From the IMG/VR virus record IMGVR_UViG_3300028909_000001: a stretch of 64,000 bases of DNA. One strand, 5' to 3'. The notes under the pieces are model-generated. The model was not told the DNA's origin. It saw only the letters and a program-made list of their open reading frames with translations, and searched no databases. A program made the position numbers and the translations under genes. Source of the stretch: a virus. Lineage: Duplodnaviria; Caudoviricetes. Every line of letters begins with the position of its first letter. Position 1 is the first letter of the stretch. Shown one piece after another: positions 13,266-47,314 of this stretch.

Positions 13266-14408
13266 TTACTGTATTTTATCAGCTTCAGCAATCTTCTTAT
13301 AAACCCAGCGTAATTTGCCCACATCCCAGATTCTATATAAACCATTCTGAATGCTCCATTGTTTCTCAGTCAATCCTGCAGGGCAATTTGTATTTCCCTT
13401 TTTCTGTGACTGCTTCGATAATCTAACTATCTTACTACTATTAATATTAACATAGCTGTAGTCTGCATCCAAACTATCTTCTAGTACAAACCCAAGCTTA
13501 GGATATACTCCACCCGAGAACCACCTACAATCAGACCAGCTAATCAACTCAGTAATTCCAGTATGATTCAACAAGAACTTAAATAATTTCGAAGCCCCAC
13601 CAGTAACATTAACATCATATTTAAAGCACAGTCTATCTAATACAAACTTACCTATGTCTCTATGATGCTTGCCAAAACTCATAACTCCTAGCAACTCATT
13701 GTTAAAATACAGACCCGCAAATACAAAGCTCAAAAAGCTCTTCCCTTGTATATGGTTTTCGTCATAAAATGCATTACCCATATCTTTGGAGATAATCCGT
13801 ACTTCACATTTCCTAGCATAGAATATCCGGGAGTTCTTACCTAGCATGGATAAGATAGCACCTTTTACCTGCTTATTTCTATTTATCCATTCATCTTCAA
13901 AAATAGTAATTAGATGTATATTGTTATTCTTACAGTTAGTATATTTAGTGTAGTTATACTTTTGCCCACATCCTTTAGATTCATTGCAATCCTTTAATAT
14001 GCAGTAGTTTATACCTACTTTAAGGTCATCATTATATAGATCTGCGTCTTTAGTAGAGGTAAAGGTCAAACTAGTTATCTCTTCCAGCCAAGTTTTAATA
14101 GGTAGTATAGGGTTCAAGGTTCTATTCCTTTTAGGTATATTGTTCTCTCTTAATAGCTTTAATAGTGTAGGATTAGTTATATTATGTTTACTCCATATAT
14201 CAGCTACCTTCATTCCAGTATTATAATCGTTAATTAGTTCAGTTATATTTACTTTAGCTTTTTGACGATTAAGATTACCTAGTTTCTTAGCTTTATCCTT
14301 TATCCTAGGCCAGGTCGTGTTAAATAAGGCTTCCAGATCTTCTTGAGGGGCAAATCTATATAGGTCTTTTAGTTGTAGTTCTTCTTCCAGAGTCCAGAGT
14401 TTATTCAT
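13266..14408 (-). CDS. Hef-like putative homing endonuclease (HTH + degenerate PD-(D/E)xK + GNAT-like C-domain)
   Basis: IYARKCEV, GLYFNNELLGVMSFG, LDRLC, GGASKLFK, SWSDCRW, RIWDVGK motifs typical of this large-phage family. Confidence 0.65.
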   Translation of the reverse strand: MNKLWTLEEELQLKDLYRFAPQEDLEALFNTTWPRIKDKAKKLGNLNRQKAKVNITELINDYNTGMKVADIWSKHNITNPTLLKLLRENNIPKRNRTLNPILPIKTWLEEITSLTFTSTKDADLYNDDLKVGINYCILKDCNESKGCGQKYNYTKYTNCKNNNIHLITIFEDEWINRNKQVKGAILSMLGKNSRIFYARKCEVRIISKDMGNAFYDENHIQGKSFLSFVFAGLYFNNELLGVMSFGKHHRDIGKFVLDRLCFKYDVNVTGGASKLFKFLLNHTGITELISWSDCRWFSGGVYPKLGFVLEDSLDADYSYVNINSSKIVRLSKQSQKKGNTNCPAGLTEKQWSIQNGLYRIWDVGKLRWVYKKIAEADKIQ

Positions 14409-14838
14409 GTTTTTGGAGATAGGTTATAGCGTTATTTAGATTAGTTATACTGTCTTTGAATTGCCCAAGCCCAAAATTACAGTCAATATAGAGCAAACCT
14501 CTTACTTTATTAGTAGTGTGGTTATGATCAACACTTAGATTAACTTTAAAAGTAGAAGCATCTTTACCACATATAGCACACTTATTATTTTGCAATTGTA
14601 GTATGTCATTATATTTTTCTAATGTTATATTAAATTTTCTTTTTAAATCTCTTCTTCTATCATAATCAGGATTTTTCTCTTTCCATTTAGCTATAGTAGT
14701 ATATTTATGAGCTATTCTGTATTGTTTATCACATAGTATACAACTAGCTCTAGGTTTGCCTTTACGTATTCCTTTCTTTCTAATATAGAATGCTGATATA
14801 TCTTTAGTTAATTTACACTGAGTACACTGTTTATTCAT
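14401..14838 (-). CDS. Endonuclease VII-type HNH homing endonuclease (one Zn ligand C>Y)
   Basis: QNNKCAICG...VDHNHTTNKVRGLLYIDCNFGLG. Confidence 0.85.
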   Translation of the reverse strand: MNKQCTQCKLTKDISAFYIRKKGIRKGKPRASCILCDKQYRIAHKYTTIAKWKEKNPDYDRRRDLKRKFNITLEKYNDILQLQNNKCAICGKDASTFKVNLSVDHNHTTNKVRGLLYIDCNFGLGQFKDSITNLNNAITYLQKHE

Positions 14839-16693: not shown

Positions 16694-17110
16694 TTATGAA
16701 AGAAGAAGACTTGGAGAATGCTTTTGTAGATATTTTATAGCATTTGTGAGGGTGTTAATATTCTCATCAGCCCTACTTAGTATATAATTGCAGTTGTTAT
16801 GCACAATACCTCTAACCTTGCCTGTCTTGTGTGAATGATCTAAATGAATACTTTTTAATATTGTAAAGTCTAAAGGTTTATTACATATAGGACAAATATT
16901 TTTCTGTTTAATTAATATATTATTATATTCTTCTAGTGTGATATTATACAGTCTTTTTAACCTACTATTTCTATACTGTAGTTTAATTTCAGGCCGGTTT
17001 CTATATTCTTTACCTCTAGCTGCAATTCTTAGTTTAACTTCAGGCCTGCTTCTATATATTTTATTCCAAATAGGGTTATTACTCATTATCTTGTAAATAT
17101 TTAATAGCAT
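16694..17110 (-). CDS. Endonuclease VII-type HNH endonuclease (likely start 17086)
   Basis: QKNICPICN...HLDHSHKTGKVRGIVHNNCN. Confidence 0.85.
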   Translation of the reverse strand: MLLNIYKIMSNNPIWNKIYRSRPEVKLRIAARGKEYRNRPEIKLQYRNSRLKRLYNITLEEYNNILIKQKNICPICNKPLDFTILKSIHLDHSHKTGKVRGIVHNNCNYILSRADENINTLTNAIKYLQKHSPSLLLS

Positions 17111-17573
17111 TTAATAACGTTTGTGGATTTTCATAAGCAAATCCTAATAAGTGATTACATTTACTATGCAAAACACCACGTATTTTGCTGGTTATGTGGT
17201 CATGATCTAGATGGGTATGCCTAGTATTAACAAGATCTAATGGTTGTTCACAAATAGGACATTTATTATCTTGTGCTTTAAGTAGACTATTATATTCTTC
17301 TAGCGTAATACCAAATCTTCTTTTTAGATCATTATTCCTACGTCTTAATTTATTTTCAGGTTTAGCATCATAGTCTATATTATAATGTGTTATACAGAGA
17401 CCTAAATGTTTAACTGGGAAATTACAACCTGCTCTTATACATACTTTTGGTTTTTCTGGTTTTATAGGTAATTCTAGTGTTCCGTGTTTCTTAAGTCTAT
17501 AGTAATGTTTTTGGCAATATCCATTACTATTTACATTTTTATCACAGTCTTCAACCTTACATTTGCTTGGCAT
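17079..17573 (-). CDS. Endonuclease VII-type HNH endonuclease with two N-terminal Cys/His Zn-finger repeats
   Basis: CKVEDC...YCQKHY; CIRAGC...LCITHY; QDNKCPICE...HLDHDHITSKIRGVLHSKCN. Confidence 0.85.
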   Translation of the reverse strand: MPSKCKVEDCDKNVNSNGYCQKHYYRLKKHGTLELPIKPEKPKVCIRAGCNFPVKHLGLCITHYNIDYDAKPENKLRRRNNDLKRRFGITLEEYNSLLKAQDNKCPICEQPLDLVNTRHTHLDHDHITSKIRGVLHSKCNHLLGFAYENPQTLLNAIKYLQDNE

Positions 17574-33918: not shown

Positions 33919-36258
33919 TTACTCAAATGATAACTGCTCTTCCAGTTCTTCTGCAAATTTATGGGTCCCAAATCCTTTGGCATATGCAAGCCCTGGTATT
34001 GGAGATGGTCCCTCCAAACTACTAGAAGCTCCAGTATTGACAGCCTTTATTAATCTACGTTCCAGATTAGTACTATATAAGGTATGCATCCAGTCATGTT
34101 CATGTGCTGGGACATCTAATAATCTTTGCATTTCTGGTTCAAATTCAGGTTTTGTCTCATTTACCGTAACATAATCGATATTATGTTTCTTCAACTCATT
34201 AATTACAGTACTGGTGATTCTAGTTCCTATTGTATAGTGTAATTCAGGTATTTCCAAGTATAAACCTTGAGCCATATCAGTTCTGACCTTCTTACTATTA
34301 GTTCTAGGAGAATAGGCTTTCTCCAGTGTATGATAATTTACTATACTGTCTGGCAAGTTATTCCCTAAGCCTTTAGGATTGGTTATTTTAACATGAGTAA
34401 TTAAACCTTTACTTATAATATCAAAATTACGTTTATTTATTCCACCTAATTGACTAGTTTCAAATGTATCTTTAATAGCTTTGGAGAAATACCTTCTACC
34501 TTCTCCAATACCTTTATGCTTTGTTATTTTAGCTGGATTAGGTATACCATCACTTAACACATCACCTTCTTCAACTAGCTGGCCTGATTTAACCAATACT
34601 TTCAAATCTGGGTGTACATAATATTCTTCAAGTTTTCCATTATCATGCTTAATAACTATATAATGACCTCCTTGTGGTGCTACTCTTACTTCTTCTATCT
34701 TACCATCAGAGTCAGCTATTGGGGCTTCATGGACAAATGAATCCGGGATATTAAATAATTGATTGATGTATTTAAAGCCACCAAATTGATTAGAACCAGT
34801 TGCACTACCTCCCTTGTGCTTACTATTATGTACTATTAAGCCATTCGCTAATACAAATAAAGCATCTTTACTATCTACTTCAATATCCCAACATTGTATT
34901 AATCCTAGATACTCTGGTTTATTGTATAGTACTACCCAATAATCATTTGTAGTAACTACATCTATAGTTTCATCAATATCTTTTAGAGGCATTTCTGTTA
35001 ATACATTACTACATTCCAGGGTTTCACAAAGTATCTTATGATTCTCTGTAGCATATAGTTCAATTACTTTATCTTTATTATCTATAAATATATATTTATT
35101 AACAGGTTGTAATCCTTGATTGAATAACCTTAGAACTTTGACTGGAGAGGTTTGACCAGCGTTATCAGAGCCAAGCACCATATCTCCGACCTTTATATCT
35201 TGAATAGCTTTAATAGAATAATCTGCCATTCTTACTAGTGTTCCTTCAGCTAAACAGTTTAACGCCCCTTGTGCTACTGGTTCTGCTGCTGAAGTACCGG
35301 CAACAACTCCAATAAAAGAATTAAGTTCAGACAAGCCTTTACCTCTGATACCCACACATAATTGACAAAGAGCACTAGAAGTTCCATCATGACTAGCTTC
35401 ACAAGTTATAGGATTTCTAACTACAATCTCTTCTATGCCTTTGCTTTTTAGAATACCCAGCATACTAGAGGTAACTTCATTATTATAGTGATATTTGTCT
35501 ATAGGATGAGCTAAGAACGAACCGATGTAATCATTATCATTTGTTTTTACAGGTATTCCATTATGAGTACCACAATCATGTTCTTCTATCACCATTGTCA
35601 TGTTTGCTCTAGCTAATTGCTTGCCTAAAAACCCACCTTCTGCCACTGATAATTTTGTGGCCGCGCTGGCTTGTCTCGCACCAAAAGTATGTGCCAAATA
35701 TTGGGGCAAGGTTAATCCTTCAGCAAAAGATCTATCAATAATAAAATCAGTTAGAATACCGCCTTTATTATCGTTAACGGCTACTGGGGAGAAAATAGTT
35801 TGACGATATTGTTCGGGACTCCCTCTCGCTCCGGCTTTAACTACCTTGGCTAGAGTCTTATTATCTTTAAGGCCTTCTTCTATTATTTCCTTATTTGCAG
35901 TGTCAGAAAACTTGTTGAGCAAATTTGTTAGTTCATCATCTTCTTTCTTTTTAGGTAACTTTTTATCCTTTATGCTCTTAATCTCTTTATTGAGTTCTTT
36001 AAATCTCTCATCTTTAAAGGAGGGTGGAAGCAAGTCACCTAGTCTGACAGTACTACCCAACCTAGTAGCTGATTCAAACCCAAGTCTAGTTAAATCTGAT
36101 ACTACTTTCTTATAACTATCTTCATTATGCTCTGCTAAATTAGAGAAGAAAGCACCTATATTCTTCTTATCCAAATCTTTGCTTTCTATAAATGAATGAG
36201 AGTTAGCAGGAGAGTAATGCTTAAGCAGGATTTTGCCTACTGTTGTTACCTCAGACAT
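33919..36258 (-). CDS. rpoC: Multisubunit RNA polymerase beta' C-terminal fragment with mini-intein
   Basis: AGARG, EGLT..Y....GAR, DCGT, RNPITC, CQLCVG, EPVAQGALN|SKHKGG (trigger-loop equivalent). Confidence 0.88.
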   Translation of the reverse strand: MSEVTTVGKILLKHYSPANSHSFIESKDLDKKNIGAFFSNLAEHNEDSYKKVVSDLTRLGFESATRLGSTVRLGDLLPPSFKDERFKELNKEIKSIKDKKLPKKKEDDELTNLLNKFSDTANKEIIEEGLKDNKTLAKVVKAGARGSPEQYRQTIFSPVAVNDNKGGILTDFIIDRSFAEGLTLPQYLAHTFGARQASAATKLSVAEGGFLGKQLARANMTMVIEEHDCGTHNGIPVKTNDNDYIGSFLAHPIDKYHYNNEVTSSMLGILKSKGIEEIVVRNPITCEASHDGTSSALCQLCVGIRGKGLSELNSFIGVVAGTSAAEPVAQGALNCLAEGTLVRMADYSIKAIQDIKVGDMVLGSDNAGQTSPVKVLRLFNQGLQPVNKYIFIDNKDKVIELYATENHKILCETLECSNVLTEMPLKDIDETIDVVTTNDYWVVLYNKPEYLGLIQCWDIEVDSKDALFVLANGLIVHNSKHKGGSATGSNQFGGFKYINQLFNIPDSFVHEAPIADSDGKIEEVRVAPQGGHYIVIKHDNGKLEEYYVHPDLKVLVKSGQLVEEGDVLSDGIPNPAKITKHKGIGEGRRYFSKAIKDTFETSQLGGINKRNFDIISKGLITHVKITNPKGLGNNLPDSIVNYHTLEKAYSPRTNSKKVRTDMAQGLYLEIPELHYTIGTRITSTVINELKKHNIDYVTVNETKPEFEPEMQRLLDVPAHEHDWMHTLYSTNLERRLIKAVNTGASSSLEGPSPIPGLAYAKGFGTHKFAEELEEQLSFE
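34825..35256 (-). mobile_element. Mini-intein (144 aa, no endonuclease)
   Basis: CLAEGTLVRMADY...ATENHKIL...CWDIEVDSKDALFVLANGLIVHN|S. Confidence 0.92.
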
Positions 36259-38587: not shown

Positions 38588-40309
38588 TCATTTCTCTATT
38601 TCTATGTTGTCTCCTGGCTCTAAATCACCTCTGTTATATGCAGCAACTACTTCTTGTTCAGTTTTATATTTTTTAGGAGTGTTATGTTTGTTTTCTGTAC
38701 TTAGTCCATAAAGGCCCAAAGCTGCTTCATTACTAGGGATTAATACAGGTTGAAAAGATTTAACAGATAATAAATTTTTGCTAGGCATCATTTTAGCTAT
38801 AACTTCTTTACGTGCTTCTTCAGTGCCTGGAATATGGACATTAAGTTGGTCTCCGTCGGAATTTTTTGTATATCCTCCTATAGTTAAGAAACTTCCGTAG
38901 TTTGGTATTTCCAAATCGTAAGCAGTATTAGATTGTAACTTAGTTACTCTTTTAACTTTCTTCCATTTTAAACTACCATTATACACCTTACCTAAATATG
39001 ATATCCATTGTTCATTATTCTTTAACTCAACTAGAAGTATTTCAATTATTTCTTTTAAAGTGCTTTTACGAAATCTATCTGTTTTAAATTCCTGGCTTAA
39101 TCTATATTTTAAATTATAAAGTTCCTTATTCTTTTGTAATTTATATTTATTATTAATAGCTGTAATTATATTTTTTTTAACAGTTTCTGAAGGAAGTGGT
39201 ACTAAGTCATTAAAGTTATCACCTATACCTGTTATATCTTTTAAGCTATTCTCTAATTTTTCCTTCTTCAACTCATGACTTATTCTAAATTTTGTTCTTT
39301 CAACTAACTTTTTAAATGTCCCAGTATGAAATCTGAAGGAGAAATTATCTTTACTACTCAGCCTAGATGCCCCTTTATATACTCCATAATTTAAATTTAA
39401 CCGTTTACTCATATATCTTAAACCGTTAATTAAATGAATTGATGATGTGCAGATACTTATATTTATAACTGTTTTATTAGAAGAACTGACACTTACTGTT
39501 CCATCAGTTGAGATTAACCCATCTAATATACCTAGTAGATGTTCTTCAGGACCGTTTAAACTAAAAGTAGGTATTTTCTTATTAAAAGCTCCACTCCCTA
39601 TCTGCTCTTTTAACCACTTATTAAACCAGGCACAAGAAGCTCTAGTTTTACCTCTAGAAGTAAATTGCCCCATCATATTCTCACTAACTCTATCTATTTC
39701 TTTAACTCCATTTTCATAAGGAAGATATTCACTATTACATAAATCAGCAAATACTTTTCTATTCATTAATTTTTCTTTGGTAGAACCGGCTAAGAAAAGT
39801 TGATTAGCATTATCTACCCAACCATCACCTAAAACCATTCCTATAAAAAGTCCGGTTTTATAATTAAGTTGCAAGTTAAATGAATTTTTAACAAATCCTT
39901 TTCCTCGTATTCCTTTCATTCCTCTAGTACCCATCATACCTTCAGCTAATACACTTGATTGAATATTGGGTGCTATAGTTGTAACATCACTAGGACAATA
40001 CCTACCTACTGCCTCTTCGGTATCAACTTCTTCAATACCACTATCAGTATAAGCTAATAAACTATGATCTTTGGCTGCAAATATAAAATCCCCATCTATA
40101 AATTGTACCAAATATAAAGGTACATTAGGATGAATCGAGAATGTCTTTGGATTTACCCAATCTACTTCACCAGTTATAAGGTTTAATGATTTTACTTCTA
40201 CATTACTAGGTACATCATAAAGGATATTACCATTTATAGTAGTAGTGGCTGAATTTTCTATTCTAGGGAAATCTGAAATAGGTACTAGTGTATATTTATA
40301 ATTAATCAT
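38588..40309 (-). CDS. rpoC: Split-intein C-fragment (483 aa, LAGLIDADG) + RNAP beta' segment starting SDGDQLNVH (90 aa)
   Basis: GMVLGDG and DGLISTDG motifs; TAYDLEI...GYTKN|SDGDQLNVHIP; SNEAALGLY. Confidence 0.85.
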   Translation of the reverse strand: MINYKYTLVPISDFPRIENSATTTINGNILYDVPSNVEVKSLNLITGEVDWVNPKTFSIHPNVPLYLVQFIDGDFIFAAKDHSLLAYTDSGIEEVDTEEAVGRYCPSDVTTIAPNIQSSVLAEGMMGTRGMKGIRGKGFVKNSFNLQLNYKTGLFIGMVLGDGWVDNANQLFLAGSTKEKLMNRKVFADLCNSEYLPYENGVKEIDRVSENMMGQFTSRGKTRASCAWFNKWLKEQIGSGAFNKKIPTFSLNGPEEHLLGILDGLISTDGTVSVSSSNKTVINISICTSSIHLINGLRYMSKRLNLNYGVYKGASRLSSKDNFSFRFHTGTFKKLVERTKFRISHELKKEKLENSLKDITGIGDNFNDLVPLPSETVKKNIITAINNKYKLQKNKELYNLKYRLSQEFKTDRFRKSTLKEIIEILLVELKNNEQWISYLGKVYNGSLKWKKVKRVTKLQSNTAYDLEIPNYGSFLTIGGYTKNSDGDQLNVHIPGTEEARKEVIAKMMPSKNLLSVKSFQPVLIPSNEAALGLYGLSTENKHNTPKKYKTEQEVVAAYNRGDLEPGDNIEIEK

Positions 40310-40315
40310 ATAGAC

Positions 40316-40344
40316 ACAATACGGTGACTAGTTGAACTTGTCAA
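40316..40344 (-). promoter_or_regulatory. sigma70 promoter overlapping the TGA of the upstream RNAP gene; leaderless start at 40309
   Basis: TTGACA-17-TATTGT-6-ATG. Confidence 0.7.
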
Positions 40345-43094
40345 TTAATTTTCTCTCTATAAATAATATAATCTACAATACTATCCGCACCATACCCCTT
40401 AAATACTAATGGATTCATTTTAATAGTTTTATCTTTAGAATTTGGATTAGCAATTAAATTAAACCCTAATAGATTATATTTATGCCAGGCTGGATCTCGC
40501 GTTATAATACCAGGTCTTACTGCCATCTCTTCCTTTAATGCCATAACTGCTAATGGACTATGTTTTTTAACATAATCAACCGCACTAATAGCTGGTACAC
40601 CCTTCATAACCAACCTTCTAATAACAAAAGGTTTATATATCTGCCACAGCATATCTTGAGGTACACTAGCCTGGTCTACATCCAATCTAGTATCTGGAGT
40701 TAACACAGCTCTTCCCACCAAATCCAGACTCTTATTAACCACCTTACTCTGAAACATTGTACTTTTAGCCGTTCCACCCTTTAATCCAAACATAGTAGCT
40801 AATATACCTTTAACATTCTTATCCTGGTGTTTCTTATTAATTGGATCACCCAAACCAAAGGCAGCTTTTACTCCATCATATTCATTTTGTTTTAATTTCC
40901 TAACTACTTCGTCCGGCACATTCTCAGTATTTTTAAGTGCATTGTTATTTAGTATGAGGTCTTTATATAGATTATTAACATCACTAGTTAATACTACATC
41001 ACCCATCTTACTAGCAGGTCTGTATTGGGCTGGTAGAATAGGTACTTTATGCAACATCAAATCTTTAGGATGTAACTTATGTTCTTTTAGTGTAGTGAGA
41101 AATTCTAACAATTTAACGGCATCATCTCTTCTAGTCTTCTTCTCACTACCTATATACTTCTTCATTTCTTCTATCTTCTTATCCAGATCTATATTATTAA
41201 GGGCTTTTTCCATTTCCCCATCCACTACCATATCATTAAACTTAAACTTGGTAACTCCTAACAACTTTCTGAGATAATCCTCACTAATAGGATTAGGTAT
41301 GGGATGATTAAGATTTATGTGATTAAACTTGTCACCTAATATGCCTATTATATTAGGATCAAATAGTCCGCCAGGTTCATGTATTAGTTCTTCTTGATGT
41401 GGCTTGAATAATGAAGGTTTCTTAATTTCACCATTACTCAAAGCAGTAGTATCCTTATCTGTTAAAGGTAGGATATTAAAGGTATTACCAACTCTATCTA
41501 CATTAATACCGGCAGCTTTTAAACTATCTATGAACTTGTTAAAGATGAATGGAACTTTAGGGCTGGGTGGGGTTTGGCCCAATTTAATAGCACGCCAGAA
41601 TTCATCATTCTGAGTACCTTTAACAGTACCTATATCCTCCAATACATGTCTGACATCATGACTTAGCAAAGCTGTAGTACCTAAATTTCCTATTCTCTTT
41701 GATGAACCACCTTCCACTGCTGACTTACTTGGTTGCCGGTCGAAACTGTATCCGGACCCCTGACTTCTAGTACTTAGTTTATCTTCACTAATATGAGTTA
41801 ACCTACTATAGAATAATGGACCTACAACTGCTTCAATATTTCTACCAGTAATTGGATCATATAGTTGTTCAGTATCATTTATATTATTCTTCTTTAATAC
41901 ATTAATTACATTCTTAATAGATGAATCCTTTCTAAACTGATCCATTTTAATAGTCTTACCAGTCTTCTCAGCTAATTTACCAAGGCCTAGAGTTATGGCT
42001 AAGGCTGGTGCAACTCTTGACGTGATGGACATGGAGTTAAGCATGATATCAACTGGCTTCCCATTAGGTAGTAGTGGAGCTTGTGAGTCTGATACAATCT
42101 TCGTTACACCCTTAGCTCCAAAGTAATTAGAAATCTTATCACCAGGTAATAGACTTCTTACCGTCTTGATATGTACTGTAATAAGTGGGCCATGTTTGGT
42201 TACATCCACTACTTCTCCATCATGTTCGTAGTCCCAGGCTTCTGAATTATCTTTGAATGCATGTTTTAATACTTTACTCAGCTTACCTAATGCCAAATCT
42301 GTACTCTTTAATGCTCTGGGTGAGTAAGCCAGGATTACCGGGTCTCCAGCTTTCAATCTAGACCCTACTATAACCACTCCATCTGAATCTATATTTTTAA
42401 TTTGATTATTCGTATATTTATTAGGAAATAGTGCTACAAATTTATCCTTGCCTGCCTCTACTCCAAATTTCTCTTCAATACTAAAATTGATCATTTGTTC
42501 TGCTGCCAACTTTTTAGCACCACTTTCAGTCACTGCAAAAGCATCCTCAAAGTTGTCTGAGCGGTACGGGATTATAGCAGTAGTAAGGTTAGTTCCCATC
42601 GCCATATTACCTTCTTTATCATTATAATTACTGTAAGCTATTACTTCATTAGTTTTAACTTTATCACCAACCTTCACTTTAGGGGTATGAGTAATAAAGC
42701 TTTTCCTGCCTAAATGAAAGTTATTATATAGTTGATAGGTAGACTTGGTTTTATCTGTATTATCTACTTTAATATGATTTTCAGTAACTTCAGTAACAGT
42801 ACCAGGTTTAGTTGCAGTTACAGATAAATAATGTTTACCATATAGTTCTTGAGTACTTTCTTTGTTAGTGTCATCTGAACTTTCTACTAACGGACGTTCA
42901 GGATTTACTAAAGGTATAGCTTGGAGAGAAGCCTTGGCTCCTAGTAACACACGCCCGCCGGAAACTGAATTTAGCCCAGTAATCATGTTAGTAGGTAAAG
43001 CAAATAAATCCCTACTCGAAGGCATGGATATATGATCTTCATTTAGTTTGTCCACCTTCTCAAAATTTCCCTTATTAAGTACAGTATAACTCAT
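40341..43094 (-). CDS. rpoB/rpoC: RNA polymerase beta C-half fused to beta' N-half, ending in a 13-aa intein N-fragment (start likely 43094)
   Basis: beta-like: QAIPL, NFEDA, GDKISNYFGAKG, PVDIMLN, RLTH, KRIG. beta'-like: GGLFDP, VPILP..YRP, GRAVLTPD, RDPAWH, GYGAD|SIVDYIIYREKIN*. Confidence 0.9.
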   Translation of the reverse strand: MSYTVLNKGNFEKVDKLNEDHISMPSSRDLFALPTNMITGLNSVSGGRVLLGAKASLQAIPLVNPERPLVESSDDTNKESTQELYGKHYLSVTATKPGTVTEVTENHIKVDNTDKTKSTYQLYNNFHLGRKSFITHTPKVKVGDKVKTNEVIAYSNYNDKEGNMAMGTNLTTAIIPYRSDNFEDAFAVTESGAKKLAAEQMINFSIEEKFGVEAGKDKFVALFPNKYTNNQIKNIDSDGVVIVGSRLKAGDPVILAYSPRALKSTDLALGKLSKVLKHAFKDNSEAWDYEHDGEVVDVTKHGPLITVHIKTVRSLLPGDKISNYFGAKGVTKIVSDSQAPLLPNGKPVDIMLNSMSITSRVAPALAITLGLGKLAEKTGKTIKMDQFRKDSSIKNVINVLKKNNINDTEQLYDPITGRNIEAVVGPLFYSRLTHISEDKLSTRSQGSGYSFDRQPSKSAVEGGSSKRIGNLGTTALLSHDVRHVLEDIGTVKGTQNDEFWRAIKLGQTPPSPKVPFIFNKFIDSLKAAGINVDRVGNTFNILPLTDKDTTALSNGEIKKPSLFKPHQEELIHEPGGLFDPNIIGILGDKFNHINLNHPIPNPISEDYLRKLLGVTKFKFNDMVVDGEMEKALNNIDLDKKIEEMKKYIGSEKKTRRDDAVKLLEFLTTLKEHKLHPKDLMLHKVPILPAQYRPASKMGDVVLTSDVNNLYKDLILNNNALKNTENVPDEVVRKLKQNEYDGVKAAFGLGDPINKKHQDKNVKGILATMFGLKGGTAKSTMFQSKVVNKSLDLVGRAVLTPDTRLDVDQASVPQDMLWQIYKPFVIRRLVMKGVPAISAVDYVKKHSPLAVMALKEEMAVRPGIITRDPAWHKYNLLGFNLIANPNSKDKTIKMNPLVFKGYGADSIVDYIIYREKIN

Positions 43095-43185
43095 ATTTTG
43101 ATTATATACTCTTATTATTGATTTCCACAACCTCAAACTTTAGTCTTTAATTAACCTGGAATATACATTAAACTAGGTTAGATTT

Positions 43186-44207: not shown

Positions 44208-47063
44208 ATGACAGACCGACACAATGTATATGTAGTTGAATTGGATAAGGAGGTCTTAGCTAAAAAAAAGTTTTTAAAGTTGAATCCTAACTACAATCCA
44301 GAACTACCTCCACTTTATGTAGGAGAGACTGGTTTGAGTCCTGAAGCTAGATTCGAGAAACATAAAACTGGACTAAAAGCCAATATCTGGGTAAAGAATC
44401 ATGGGCTTAGACTTAGGCCTGAACATTATAAAGATTTAAATCCCATGCCATTTCATAAAGCTGAAAGAACCGAGGAATGGTTGGCAAAGAAGTTAAGGGC
44501 TGAGGGTTATCCAGTAGTAGGTGGGAATCCTAGAACCGTACCTTTGAAGAAGGAGGCTGGTGAAGAAGCGTTACAACCTCAACAAGCTAGAGTAATTAAG
44601 AAGATTCAAGATAAGAATACTTCAGGGTTAGTGCTTTATCATGGGATGGGTAGTGGAAAAGGATTGGTTATAGGCTCAAAGATATTAACACCTACAGGGT
44701 GGATAAATATAGAAGATATAAAACAAAACACAGAAGTGATTTCTGTTAATGGTGTGAAAGCTAATGTGACTGGAGTCTATCCTCAAGGGTATAAAGATGT
44801 GTATAAAATTACTTTTAGGGATGGTGCTACTATAGAATGTGATGATTCTCATTTATGGTTCACTCAATCTAGATGTGAACGTAAAAATTACGTTAAAAGC
44901 AAGGATCAATTTAAATATAGGTGGGTAGGTAAAGTCAGGAGTACAAGCGAAATTAAAGATACAGTATTATCTAATGATAATAGTTTAAATTATACTATTC
45001 CTATTGTGAAACCTATTCATTTTAAATATAGAAAACTTCCACTAGACCCGTATTTTGTTGGTTTGATTTTAGGAGATGGTAGTATTTGTGGAGGTGGCTG
45101 TGCGATAACAACAGCAGATGACGAAATTCTGCAATCAATTAAGTCTTTATTTCCAAATTTTACTCTTAAAAAATATTCTAAATATACTTATGGATTAGGT
45201 AAACCAAAAGGATATAACAGTTACATTGTTCAAGCATTTAAAGAATTAAAATTACAAGGTATGAATTGTTTTACAAAATTTATACCTGATATTTATATGT
45301 TTAACACAGTGAAATCTCGCATAGCATTATTACAAGGGTTAATGGATACTGATGGTACTGTAAGTAAAGATGGTATGGCTATAGTTTATGAGTCCGTCTC
45401 AAAACAGTTAGCAGATGGTGTGCAATTCCTTGTTGAATCACTAGGAGGTTTAGCAAAGATAACAACTAGAATTCCAACATATTCATATAAAGGAGAAAAA
45501 AAGAAAGGAGCTTTATGTTATAGGGTTTGGTTAAGTTTACCACCAAATATCAATCCATTTAGATTACACAGAAAAGCAATTCAAGTAATTCCTAAGACTA
45601 AATATAAACCAACTAGATATATAAAAAGTATAGAATATGTTGGAAAAAAAGAGACAATCTGTATTGCAATCGATGACCCTTCTCATCTATATATTACTGA
45701 ACATTGTATAGTTACGCACAATACACGCGAAAGTATTGAATCCTGGAAAGCATTAGGATTACCTAAGACTGATATCATTGTTCCAGCTTCATTAAAATCC
45801 AACTATCGTAAAGAGTTGCAGAGATGGTATGGCAATTCTAATCCTTCTAATATCAACTTAATTAGTCAACAAAGATTTGCTAATTCTAAGTTAAATACTC
45901 CAATATACAATACTGGTTTGCAGATAGTAGATGAAGCTCAAAAAGCTAAAAATAGTAATAGTGAATTATATCAAGCATTGGTTAAAACGAATCCAGCCAA
46001 GCGCCTTCTCCTTTCAGGAACTCCAATTCTAAATGATCCTACTGAATTAAGTAATCTTGTTAACTTAGTAGCAAAGAAACAAGTATTACCTAATAATTTA
46101 TCTGAGTTTAAAAAACAATATTTTAAACAGGAAGAAGTTAAACCTGGATTTTTTGGTAGATTAATGGGAGTTTCTCCAGGCATTCAATATAAGCTACAGA
46201 ATAAAGCTCAACTATCTAAGATTCTGGATAAGTATGTTGACTACTATAAACCTACTCAAGAAGGATATCCTACTGTGACGGAGCAAGAAGTTAATGTTCC
46301 TATGGGTGCTAAACAACAAGAGATATATGATACAATACTCGGAAAGACACCATTTTGGACACGTTATCGAATTAAACATAATTTACCTCCTGGACGTGGT
46401 GAATTAGAAGGTATGCGAGCATTTTTAAGTGGACCTAGACAAGTAAGCAATTCAACTGCTGGATTTACTAAAAATTTAAGAGACGTGGAATCCCCTAAAA
46501 TAGATGCAGCTTTTAAGTTTTTACAAATACAATTAAAACAAGATCCAAACTATAAAGCTCTAGTATATAGTAATTATCTTAATAATGGTCTTAGACCTTA
46601 TGAATCATTATTAAGAAAGAATAATATACCATTTGGAGAGTTTAGTGGAGCTGTAACACCTACTATAAGAGACCAGGCAGTTAAAGATTATAATGCTAAT
46701 AAATTAAGAGCATTATTAGTATCAGGAGCTGGGGCTGAAGGATTGGATTTGAAGGCTACAAATTTGACACAACTTTTGGAACCTTTTTGGAACCTTCCTA
46801 AAGAGAGACAAGTTATCGGAAGATCAGTACGTTTCCATAGTCATGATAGTTTGCCTCCAGAAAAGAGAAAGGTTTTAGTGCAACGTTATTTTGCCACACC
46901 AAAACCTAGTTTATTGGATAAACTTACATTCAATCCCAAACCTACTGGTACAGATTCATATATTAGAAATTCAATCAGTAAACCAAAAGATAATCTTAAT
47001 CAAGAAATAACTAATTTAATAGCCAAGAATCAAGAACCTAAATCTTGGCTTAACTACAATTAA
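44208..47063 (+). CDS. GIY-YIG-like domain + SNF2-family helicase with class 3 intein (start likely 44208)
   Basis: VYVVEL...LYVGETG; GMGSGK|T; VDEAQK; LLSGTP; GAEGLDL; QVIGRSVR. Confidence 0.85.
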   Translation: MTDRHNVYVVELDKEVLAKKKFLKLNPNYNPELPPLYVGETGLSPEARFEKHKTGLKANIWVKNHGLRLRPEHYKDLNPMPFHKAERTEEWLAKKLRAEGYPVVGGNPRTVPLKKEAGEEALQPQQARVIKKIQDKNTSGLVLYHGMGSGKGLVIGSKILTPTGWINIEDIKQNTEVISVNGVKANVTGVYPQGYKDVYKITFRDGATIECDDSHLWFTQSRCERKNYVKSKDQFKYRWVGKVRSTSEIKDTVLSNDNSLNYTIPIVKPIHFKYRKLPLDPYFVGLILGDGSICGGGCAITTADDEILQSIKSLFPNFTLKKYSKYTYGLGKPKGYNSYIVQAFKELKLQGMNCFTKFIPDIYMFNTVKSRIALLQGLMDTDGTVSKDGMAIVYESVSKQLADGVQFLVESLGGLAKITTRIPTYSYKGEKKKGALCYRVWLSLPPNINPFRLHRKAIQVIPKTKYKPTRYIKSIEYVGKKETICIAIDDPSHLYITEHCIVTHNTRESIESWKALGLPKTDIIVPASLKSNYRKELQRWYGNSNPSNINLISQQRFANSKLNTPIYNTGLQIVDEAQKAKNSNSELYQALVKTNPAKRLLLSGTPILNDPTELSNLVNLVAKKQVLPNNLSEFKKQYFKQEEVKPGFFGRLMGVSPGIQYKLQNKAQLSKILDKYVDYYKPTQEGYPTVTEQEVNVPMGAKQQEIYDTILGKTPFWTRYRIKHNLPPGRGELEGMRAFLSGPRQVSNSTAGFTKNLRDVESPKIDAAFKFLQIQLKQDPNYKALVYSNYLNNGLRPYESLLRKNNIPFGEFSGAVTPTIRDQAVKDYNANKLRALLVSGAGAEGLDLKATNLTQLLEPFWNLPKERQVIGRSVRFHSHDSLPPEKRKVLVQRYFATPKPSLLDKLTFNPKPTGTDSYIRNSISKPKDNLNQEITNLIAKNQEPKSWLNYN
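44661..45722 (+). mobile_element. Class 3-type intein (354 aa) with LAGLIDADG, Gly at position 1
   Basis: GK|GLVIGSKILTPTGW; SHLW (W), TICIAID (C), VTHN|T (T); GLILGDG and GLMDTDG. Confidence 0.88.
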
Positions 47064-47314
47064 GCTTTCTCTTCCTTTTCCTGCTCCTTAGCTAATTGCA
47101 GTATTTTCCGCATCAAGTCTGGGGTGAATCTTAGCGGCTGATCTCCGAAATCAAATACATTGCATAGTTCATCCATTACCGAACTAGCGATTGTATTTAT
47201 AACTACCTCAGGTTTGCTAAAGTTATTCACATCTTTAAGTAATGCCTCAACTCCAGAAGTAACTCCACTAACCACTGAATTTTCTGTAACGATATAAGAA
47301 TTAATATTTATCAT
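47060..47314 (-). CDS. Hypothetical protein
   Basis: 84 aa; upstream TTGACA-16-TATATT-7-ATG (47322-47349). Confidence 0.6.
   Translation of the reverse strand: MININSYIVTENSVVSGVTSGVEALLKDVNNFSKPEVVINTIASSVMDELCNVFDFGDQPLRFTPDLMRKILQLAKEQEKEEKA

Follow-up and report, generated by a model that had tools for sequence, protein, structure and literature searches.

Naturally split inteins with short N-terminal fragments

In March 2026 the N-terminal fragments (IntN) of natural split inteins were given as 15-37 amino acids (aa) long (PMC13014065). PolB16 OarG, a natural intein with Ser1 and Ser+1 that trans-splices with an IntN of 15 aa, was called the shortest characterized (Pasch et al. 2023, Chem Sci; PMC10189870). 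It has also been called the only natural intein that is atypically split and lacks cysteine, its efficiency being poor, and a cysteine-less IntN of about 15 aa was called desirable (PMC13014065). Here we analyzed a 64,000-nt stretch (the window) of a 127-kb virus record from a peat-soil phage, IMG/VR record IMGVR_UViG_3300028909_000001, which is 58% complete. In it, the gene for the RNA polymerase (RNAP) beta' subunit is broken in the loop that carries the catalytic DxDGD motif. We consider it likely that the locus as a whole is best explained by a real, naturally split class-1 intein in this Mg-binding loop. Its IntN of 13 residues is shorter than any natural one described. As far as we found in the literature, which we covered incompletely, it is the first natural split intein to keep a homing nuclease inside one fragment; we came across no other with a nested nuclease and no intein described at the DxDGD motif.

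PolB16 OarG is the closest known system. Like the present intein, it has an atypical split at the S1 position, Ser1/Ser+1 oxyester chemistry, class-1 motifs and an extra conserved histidine upstream of block B, and it comes from a metagenomic polymerase gene. The two differ in the length of IntN, 15 aa there and 13-14 aa here, and in the C-terminal fragment (IntC), a 168-aa mini version in PolB16 OarG and 483 aa with a LAGLIDADG nuclease in the window. The present intein is also distinguished by its host protein (RNAP beta' at the DxDGD loop), its penultimate Lys and a promoter-like cassette in the break, and it is known from sequence alone. A preliminary description of the window had stressed that no catalytic Cys is used. 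Ser1 and Ser+1 are indeed found, but this chemistry is not new, as PolB16 OarG already has it. The shorter IntN and the retained nuclease are new.

In the published S1/S2 nomenclature, VidaL (16 aa) and PolB16 OarG (15 aa) are S1 splits, while AceL-TerL (25 aa) and GOS-TerL (37 aa) have their break at S2, behind the first helix (PMC13014065). By the same summary VidaL, AceL-TerL and GOS-TerL depend on a cysteine at one or both junctions, unlike the intein studied here (PMC13014065). All three resemble it in combining a short natural IntN with a long IntC, and VidaL is split at the same S1 position. The break in the window had been likened to that of AceL-TerL. It does fall after the first beta-strands, but at S1, as in PolB16 OarG and VidaL, and not at the S2 of AceL-TerL. 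We know of no nuclease domain in VidaL, AceL-TerL or GOS-TerL.

Engineered S1 splits of Ssp DnaB (S1 / M86), Ssp DnaX and Ter ThyX trans-splice in cells and in vitro with an IntN of 11-12 aa (PMC3620165). There too a short IntN supplies the first strands, but those inteins are artificial, begin with Cys1 and have the nuclease domain deleted.

The 'fractured genes' are broken at the canonical mid-intein site, and a GIY-YIG or Vsr-like gene stands free between their halves (Dassa et al. 2009, PMC2677866). They share with the present locus that a split intein interrupts a phage-type gene in place and that control elements would be brought by a selfish nuclease; one Dassa locus keeps the upstream hairpin of the nuclease before the C-terminal gene part. 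Here, in contrast, only 31 nt (24 nt in relatives) separate the halves, the nuclease is fused inside IntC and the break is at S1. As no gene lies between the halves, this is not a Dassa-type fractured gene.

Organization of the locus

Both RNAP/intein open reading frames (ORFs) are on the minus strand:

40341..43094 (-), upstream ORF, RNAP beta C-half and beta' N-part; 917 aa from ATG, 931 aa from an upstream TTG
40383..43094 (-), N-extein, beta C-half fused to beta' N-part, 904 aa, C-terminus ...KGYGAD (first Asp of the DxDGD loop)
40344..40382 (-), IntN, 13 codons, SIVDYIIYREKIN; Ser1, the predicted nucleophile, has codon 40382..40380
40341..40343 (-), TGA stop of the upstream ORF, within a -35-like hexamer (T-TGA-CA)
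40310..40340 (-), gap between the ORFs, 31 nt; IntC ATG at 40309..40307
38588..40309 (-), downstream ORF, 573 aa, starting MINYKYT (MINYKYTLVPISDF); 483 intein residues, then SDGDQLNVH
38861..40309 (-), IntC, 483 aa; Hint part at residues 1 to about 147 and again from about 446 to 483, a LAGLIDADG nuclease nested between them; C-terminus ...GGYTKN
38863..38861 (-), codon of Asn483, the last intein residue; the penultimate residue is Lys
38588..38860 (-), C-extein, Ser+1 then DGDQLNVHIPGTEEAR..., a 90-aa middle piece of beta' and the stop; Pfam Rpb1_2 end

The N-extein matches Pfam RNA_pol_Rpb2_6 (4.8e-45), Rpb1_1 (9.5e-10) and the start of Rpb1_2, and the C-extein aligns to the tails of intein-less homologues. 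Joined, the exteins come to 994 aa, and intein-less homologues are 985-999 aa long. We found about 500 homologues, most of them 985-1000 aa and uninterrupted at the insertion site. Where inspected, those without the split carry the catalytic loop in a single chain (GADNDGDQ, NADADGDQ or GYGADSDGDQ). One of them, P0123, natively reads GYGADSDGDQ, the loop predicted from joining GYGAD to SDGDQ. The earlier proposal that splicing would restore this motif thus agrees with a native sequence and with a normal joined length.

The downstream ORF sits in the +1 frame relative to the upstream ORF. All three frames are closed at the gap, by TGA 40343 (frame 0), TAG 40330 (the downstream frame), and TAA 40347 with TGA 40308 (the third), and so a single indel cannot fuse the two ORFs. 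Frame analysis bears out the preliminary description in the end of the upstream ORF, the 31-nt gap, its TGA and TAG stops and the lack of a single-indel repair. The intein had been placed at 38861-40379; the position 38861 holds, while the other end is one codon short, Ser1 being at 40382..40380.

The break in DNA and RNA

The junction is not an assembly error. It is letter-for-letter the same in a JGI contig (L005) from a different sample, all sampled junction words are present in 16 peat-metagenome DNA runs, and a contig from a DNA run (X2) is identical to the window across the compared 4.7-kb stretch. RNA runs were compared as contigs only, and DNA may have been carried over into the RNA library. 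Within this scope, an RNA-library contig (X17) crosses the gap unchanged (40275-40614) with no joint, insertion or deletion reported, so removal of the gap at the RNA level, which would have spoken against a split protein, was not seen. Stretches of the locus that no RNA contig covers carry no information on this point. The junction, for which a check had been proposed earlier, is the same in independent assemblies, 16 DNA runs and an RNA-library contig.

An assembly or sequencing artefact, or a decaying pseudogene, might be suspected in a metagenomic sequence whose genome record is just 58% complete. The recurrence of the junction in independent samples and runs argues against this, as do frames that one indel cannot rejoin and three diverged lineages that keep the break, the catalytic residues and the nuclease motifs. 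We regard either explanation as extremely improbable.

Conservation and origin of the split

The same two-gene layout occurs in two further lineages (P0002/P0010 and P0003/P0013), both with gaps of 24 nt. Their second ORFs are 57% (P0002, 568 aa) and 55% (P0003, 562 aa) identical to that of the window over the whole ORF, and their first ORFs (917 or 916 aa) are 74-76% identical. The relatives have STIDYIVYREKLTS and SVIDHIIYREKLTS as IntN where the window has SIVDYIIYREKIN, a strongly conserved set of 13-14 aa with Ser1 in all three. The IntN codons of the window and of the related locus L002 differ by three synonymous changes and five conservative ones.

A maximum-likelihood tree built on the host protein groups the three split phages in one clade (UFboot/SH-aLRT 92/94), whose sister group consists of intein-less phages and whose end branches measure 0.22-0.33 changes per site. 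With one clade and such end branches, a single origin followed by long maintenance is the simplest reading, and long maintenance in turn argues for function.

The preliminary description had also suggested looking for contiguous homologs. A search of 1.8 billion representatives yielded P0125 (1436 aa, 48% identity), which carries a contiguous intein at the identical insertion point, AGAD/SILGVVKVYEQGEGKFVNIADVP...LYQ/SDGDQ (slashes mark the junctions). Alignment to P0125 places the break of the split inteins in the beta1-beta2 loop, that is, in the first hairpin. A break after the first strands and an IntN of 13-14 aa are the features of the atypical S1 split type. The best explanation, and a likely one on these alignments and the tree, is a single event that broke a once contiguous intein in its first hairpin loop, between the first two strands (S1 position).

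Many related LAGLIDADG inteins lie three residues downstream, at the neighbouring DFDGD/(S or T) site of other phage polymerases (P0126-P0137; L007, L008, L010). Together with P0125 they belong to the same intein family (27-48% identity) and target the same catalytic loop, and P0125 is also Ser1/Ser+1. Unlike the split inteins, they are single-chain, and most have a 20-35-aa insert after the first strand. The last residue is unusual in some related beta' inteins, namely Gln in P0125 (LYQ/S) and Asp in P0126 and P0132 (IVQD/T); others at the DFDGD site end Asn/Thr.

We considered whether splits are more widespread among relatives of 500-600 aa that start at a conserved Met. The frames of P0152, P0225 and P0157 are open upstream, and these cases were set aside as gene-call or contig-edge artefacts. 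In contiguous relatives (L043 2985-3003; L044 95-117; L045 65-89) a conserved Met follows the first-strand insert and is preceded by an in-frame GGAG(A). It may be an internal start for the nuclease-bearing part; the sample is biased, since the gene callers that chose these cases favour such sites. In L043 2615-2900 (P0152), a stop-rich stretch precedes the frame with ...FDGD/CCLGS...; its beginning, about 385 nt before the called start, directly follows the called gene upstream. The stretch may represent an intron or a different insert immediately ahead of the catalytic loop.

A megablast of the 4.5-kb locus against public phage records gave no match. By protein, the nearest isolates are Salmonella phage Arash and Vibrio phages D69 and D181, with only about 30% identity. 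The intein piece matches only unrelated LAGLIDADG inteins in public phage records, and an IMG/VR scan for the IntC start with a protein pattern and a degenerate DNA pattern found nothing.

Splicing residues, fold and nuclease

The residues named in this section are encoded as follows:

40064..40066 (-), block B (N3) histidine, His82, in K-D-H-S-L
40130..40132 (-), His60 of IntC, invariant in an alignment of 15 related Ser1/Thr1/Cys1 inteins
39812..39853 (-), first LAGLIDADG motif, GLFIGMVLGDGWVD, with acidic Asp162, nearly invariant across 15 relatives
39500..39538 (-), second LAGLIDADG motif, LLGILDGLISTDG, with acidic Asp269, invariant across 15 relatives

The splicing blocks A, B, F and G are present as S-I-V-D..., K-D-H-S-L, A-Y-D-L-E-I-P and G-Y-T-K-N. 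All three split lineages retain Ser1, His82 of block B, Asp465 of block F, Asn483 and Ser+1. The IntC model made with AlphaFold2 has a pLDDT of 85, and its best folds in the PDB are the TliVMA intein (3e-18), PI-PfuI, PI-TkoII and PI-SceI; a PDB sequence search with IntC gave no match at E values up to 1. The locus therefore shows what defines a class-1 intein, namely the Hint fold with its blocks, Ser1, Asn and Ser+1, and a host motif and length restored on removal.

An 'NX' motif, a histidine upstream of block B preceded by Lys or Arg, has been reported as specific to Ser1 inteins (Pasch et al., PMC10189870). His60 lies 22 residues before the block B histidine and is preceded by Ile or Val (Lys in P0125). 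By its position and invariance in the alignment it may be the candidate 'NX' histidine, though no Lys or Arg stands before it.

The nuclease part matches Pfam LAGLIDADG_3 (32.8 bits, cut-off 22.5), and its fold also resembles I-SceI and I-DmoI. Two motifs with acidic residues and the alpha-beta-beta-alpha-beta-beta-alpha fold are those of a LAGLIDADG enzyme, and from these features the nuclease in IntC is apparently intact. The retained nuclease of the preliminary description is thus corroborated by the Pfam match, the fold and the conservation of both acidic residues.

We also modelled a complex between residues 1-520 of P0001, which has one difference from the window ORF (S319G), and the last 50 residues of the upstream ORF (ORF1). 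The complex reached an ipSAE of 0.86, and the best of three controls reached 0.00; among 78 solved complexes 51 attained this mark, and among 108 mismatched pairs 2 did. Model runs share at least 69% of contacts, with a partner pLDDT of at least 55. In the model, ORF1 residues 908-913 (in IntN) pair with IntC residues 5-11 and 36-40 and with the C-terminal junction at 474-478. These modelled contacts are exactly what the Hint fold requires. Since split-intein complexes have already been solved, the high score may reflect likeness to known structures. The model supports binding of IntN to IntC and does not show it.

On these residues and alignments the locus probably encodes a split trans-splicing intein. 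The Ser1/Ser+1 intein with a 13-residue N-fragment in the DxDGD loop, as first described, is supported by the conserved split, the contiguous allele, the catalytic residues, the spliced length, the docking model with its controls and the lack of an RNA-level joint. Several points weigh on the other side. The downstream ORF scores 27.7 bits with Pfam Intein_splicing, below the cut-off of 35.8. The penultimate residue is Lys (Lys or Cys in relatives) and the usual His is absent. Association of the fragments is taken from a model whose high score may stem from resemblance to split inteins already solved. The split is known from three lineages only, two of these at the DNA level. Finally, 10 of 14 engineered S1 splits failed to trans-splice, two of them giving C-junction cleavage only (PMC3620165). 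An S1 split does not guarantee ligation, because only 4 of the 14 designs worked.

These engineered splits and the missing penultimate His make C-cleavage a serious rival. Here IntN would complete the fold, IntC would cleave off at Asn483, and the polymerase would work as non-covalent pieces with a DxDGD loop from two chains. Phage multisubunit RNAPs are often encoded in several pieces, and beta'-C is a separate gene in this phage (33919-36258). PolB16 itself shows up to 25% C-cleavage (PMC13014065), besides the engineered S1 inteins that C-cleave without splicing (PMC3620165). Against such an outcome, all three lineages retain Ser1, Ser+1 and the His of block B, the loop is in one chain in all of the roughly 500 homologues seen, and a leftover 13-aa tail on the first Asp of the Mg-binding loop would occupy the active centre. 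We therefore hold cleavage without ligation to be improbable, and trans-splicing remains the preferred reading.

The gap between the two genes

The gap and its surroundings contain promoter-like elements and a short direct repeat:

40339..40344 (-), -35-like hexamer TTGACA; TTGACT at the same place in L002, L003 and L004
40316..40321 (-), -10-like hexamer TATTGT, spaced 17 nt from the -35 and 6 nt from the ATG, a leaderless geometry
Gap of the window, TTGACA-N17-TATTGT-N6-ATG; TGA inside the -35; +1 frame; IntN 13 aa
Gap of L002-L004, TTGACT-N17-TATATT-N7-ATG; TAA in the spacer; in frame; IntN 14 aa
40343..40349 (-), direct repeat ATTAATT, copy 1
40300..40306 (-), direct repeat ATTAATT, copy 2, codons 2-3 of IntC
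43101..43130 (-), weaker promoter-like site before the first ORF, TTGTGG-N18-TATAAT-N6-ATG

The promoter spacing is kept between lineages while the position of the stop, the reading frame and the length of IntN differ. Conservation of promoter geometry where coding properties are not conserved argues against a translated reading of the gap. The hexamers, a spacer within 16-18 nt and a -10 followed by the start codon at some 6-8 nt are those of sigma-70-type leaderless promoters. In the genome, the strict pattern has nine matches, six of them followed by ORFs of at least 80 aa (mean 0.01 in 200 Markov simulations), and five other real gene starts carry it. Genes of this phage are without Shine-Dalgarno sites. 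From the conserved geometry, the recurrence of the pattern at gene starts and the lack of Shine-Dalgarno sites, we think the gap is rather more probably than otherwise a sigma-70-type promoter for a leaderless IntC mRNA.

A TTGAC(A/T)-N16-17-TAnnnT site also lies 6-8 nt ahead of the starts of two Endonuclease_7 genes, of a free LAGLIDADG-like gene and of an 84-aa ORF. The genes with this geometry at their start are:

14401-14838 (-), window
17079-17573 (-), window
47060-47314 (-), window
C1:8719-9404, genome (L046)

The promoter class looks common to selfish nuclease genes. The site before the first RNAP ORF was not listed by the promoter scan because only three of its six -35 positions match.

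Other observations tell against a promoter. It was read from a match to the consensus, and the -10 of the window is only TATTGT. Over the region as a whole, promoter-like matches show no enrichment, with 39 found and 59 expected. The RNA-library contig that crosses the gap indicates that read-through transcripts, or carried-over DNA, also exist. As a separate observation, contigs of two different RNA runs abut inside the promoter spacer, where X19 ends and X18 begins (40324/40325); this may be chance or an assembly effect.

The split intein could be real and trans-splice without a promoter in the gap. IntC would then be translated by re-initiation on a bicistronic read-through mRNA, with the conserved TTGAC and TAT..T blocks either serving translation or remaining from former coding sequence. 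A gap as short as 24-31 nt and its presence in an RNA-library contig fit this arrangement, and sigma-70-like matches are common in AT-rich DNA. The distant contiguous relative P0126 (L047) has an in-frame AAG-CTTGACT at the matching place with no convincing -10, and TTGAC may accordingly be old coding sequence (K-L-D/T-S). Re-initiation does not account for a -35, a 17-nt spacer, a -10 and 6-7 nt to the ATG being kept when the frame, stop and IntN length are not, nor for the same strict pattern at five other real gene starts. We judge it unlikely.

A third possibility is recoding, by which a contiguous precursor would be made through a ribosome hop like that of T4 gene 60 (from the AAT before the TGA to the AAT after the ATG) or through stop readthrough. 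In the window the ATTAATT repeat would let a ribosome take off and land on matching codons that lie 43 nt apart, the take-off codon being followed at once by a stop, and the minimum-energy fold has a small hairpin with its start at the TGA. The gap of L002 is in frame and closed by just one TAA. L002 has neither the repeat nor the hairpin, however, so that the features of a gene 60-type bypass occur in the window alone. The two gaps fold no better than shuffles (z -0.55 and +0.73), and a conserved RNA structure across the gap is not supported. No single recoding mechanism fits both loci, because the window needs a frame change and L002 does not. The ATG is kept in three lineages, which a hop does not require. 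No suppressor tRNA was found in the 127 kb searched of a phage genome of about 218 kb, in which the sole tRNA gene is a tRNA-Cys (C1:120165-120238). Recoding is thus very improbable. Reassignment of stop codons was also considered and rejected, as it would not join the frames of the window: reading through TGA only takes the upstream frame on to TAA 40304, and a TAG of its own closes the downstream frame.

The ATTAATT repeat flanks a 36-nt cassette in the window, and deleting one copy with the interval (43 nt) restores an in-frame REKIN-YKYT. The repeat may be a target-site duplication or chance; a rough hand estimate, made post hoc, puts the probability of chance on the order of one in a hundred. 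We also tried the gap block TCACCGTAT as a repeated motif of the genome and discarded it, with four matches at one mismatch or fewer against seven expected.

Proposed mechanism and significance

The anatomy of the split intein, its conservation and its reality in DNA are observed directly; its activities are predicted from the residues present and association of the fragments from the model. Gene 1 would make beta/beta'-N ending in the 13-residue IntN with Ser1. Gene 2 would make the 483-residue IntC, comprising the rest of the Hint fold and the LAGLIDADG nuclease, followed by Ser+1 and 90 residues of beta'. The 13-mer would dock as the missing first beta-strand of the Hint fold, after which an N-O acyl shift at Ser1, transesterification to Ser+1 and cyclization of Asn483 would give a 994-aa chain with a complete GYGAD-SDGDQ loop. 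Once freed, the intein could target intein-less alleles as a homing nuclease. The intergenic 24-31 nt would be a promoter starting a leaderless mRNA at the IntC ATG and giving the nuclease piece its own expression.

More tentatively, the 13-mer split may have arisen when a small selfish 'stop-promoter-start' cassette (about 36 nt, with 7-nt repeat flanks in the window) landed in the first hairpin loop of a nuclease-bearing intein. It would have given the nuclease piece a host-read leaderless early transcript, and maturation of the RNAP loop would then depend on two separately expressed proteins meeting. We find such an origin possible but doubtful. It is speculation that the intein is a post-translational on-switch for the phage RNAP, as the preliminary description had proposed.

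If the split-intein reading is true, the Mg-binding loop of the RNAP exists only after protein ligation. The promoter seemingly carried in the break, which lies away from the nuclease insertion site, would be a concrete route from contiguous to split intein distinct from the 'fractured gene' route. Should the cassette reading hold as well, the locus would combine a post-translational timing switch with a natural cysteine-free IntN, the shortest of its kind, which could serve as a synthetic 13-mer tag for ligation. Protein chemists are actively looking for short IntN peptides without cysteine, and three natural variants with an IntN of 13-14 aa, presumably kept by selection on an essential enzyme, are direct candidates.

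Other inteins of the phage

The beta'-C gene (33919-36258, minus strand) contains a second intein at 34825-35256, a 144-aa mini-intein reading CLAEGT...LIVHN/S. The near-identical strain L005 (from 8049 on) has the same beta'-C intein with an inserted LAGLIDADG domain (LFGLLLGDGC...), so the nuclease differs between strains. A third intein, with LAGLIDADG_3 and Hom_end domains, is in a SNF2-family helicase gene (44208-47063, plus strand, 951 aa).

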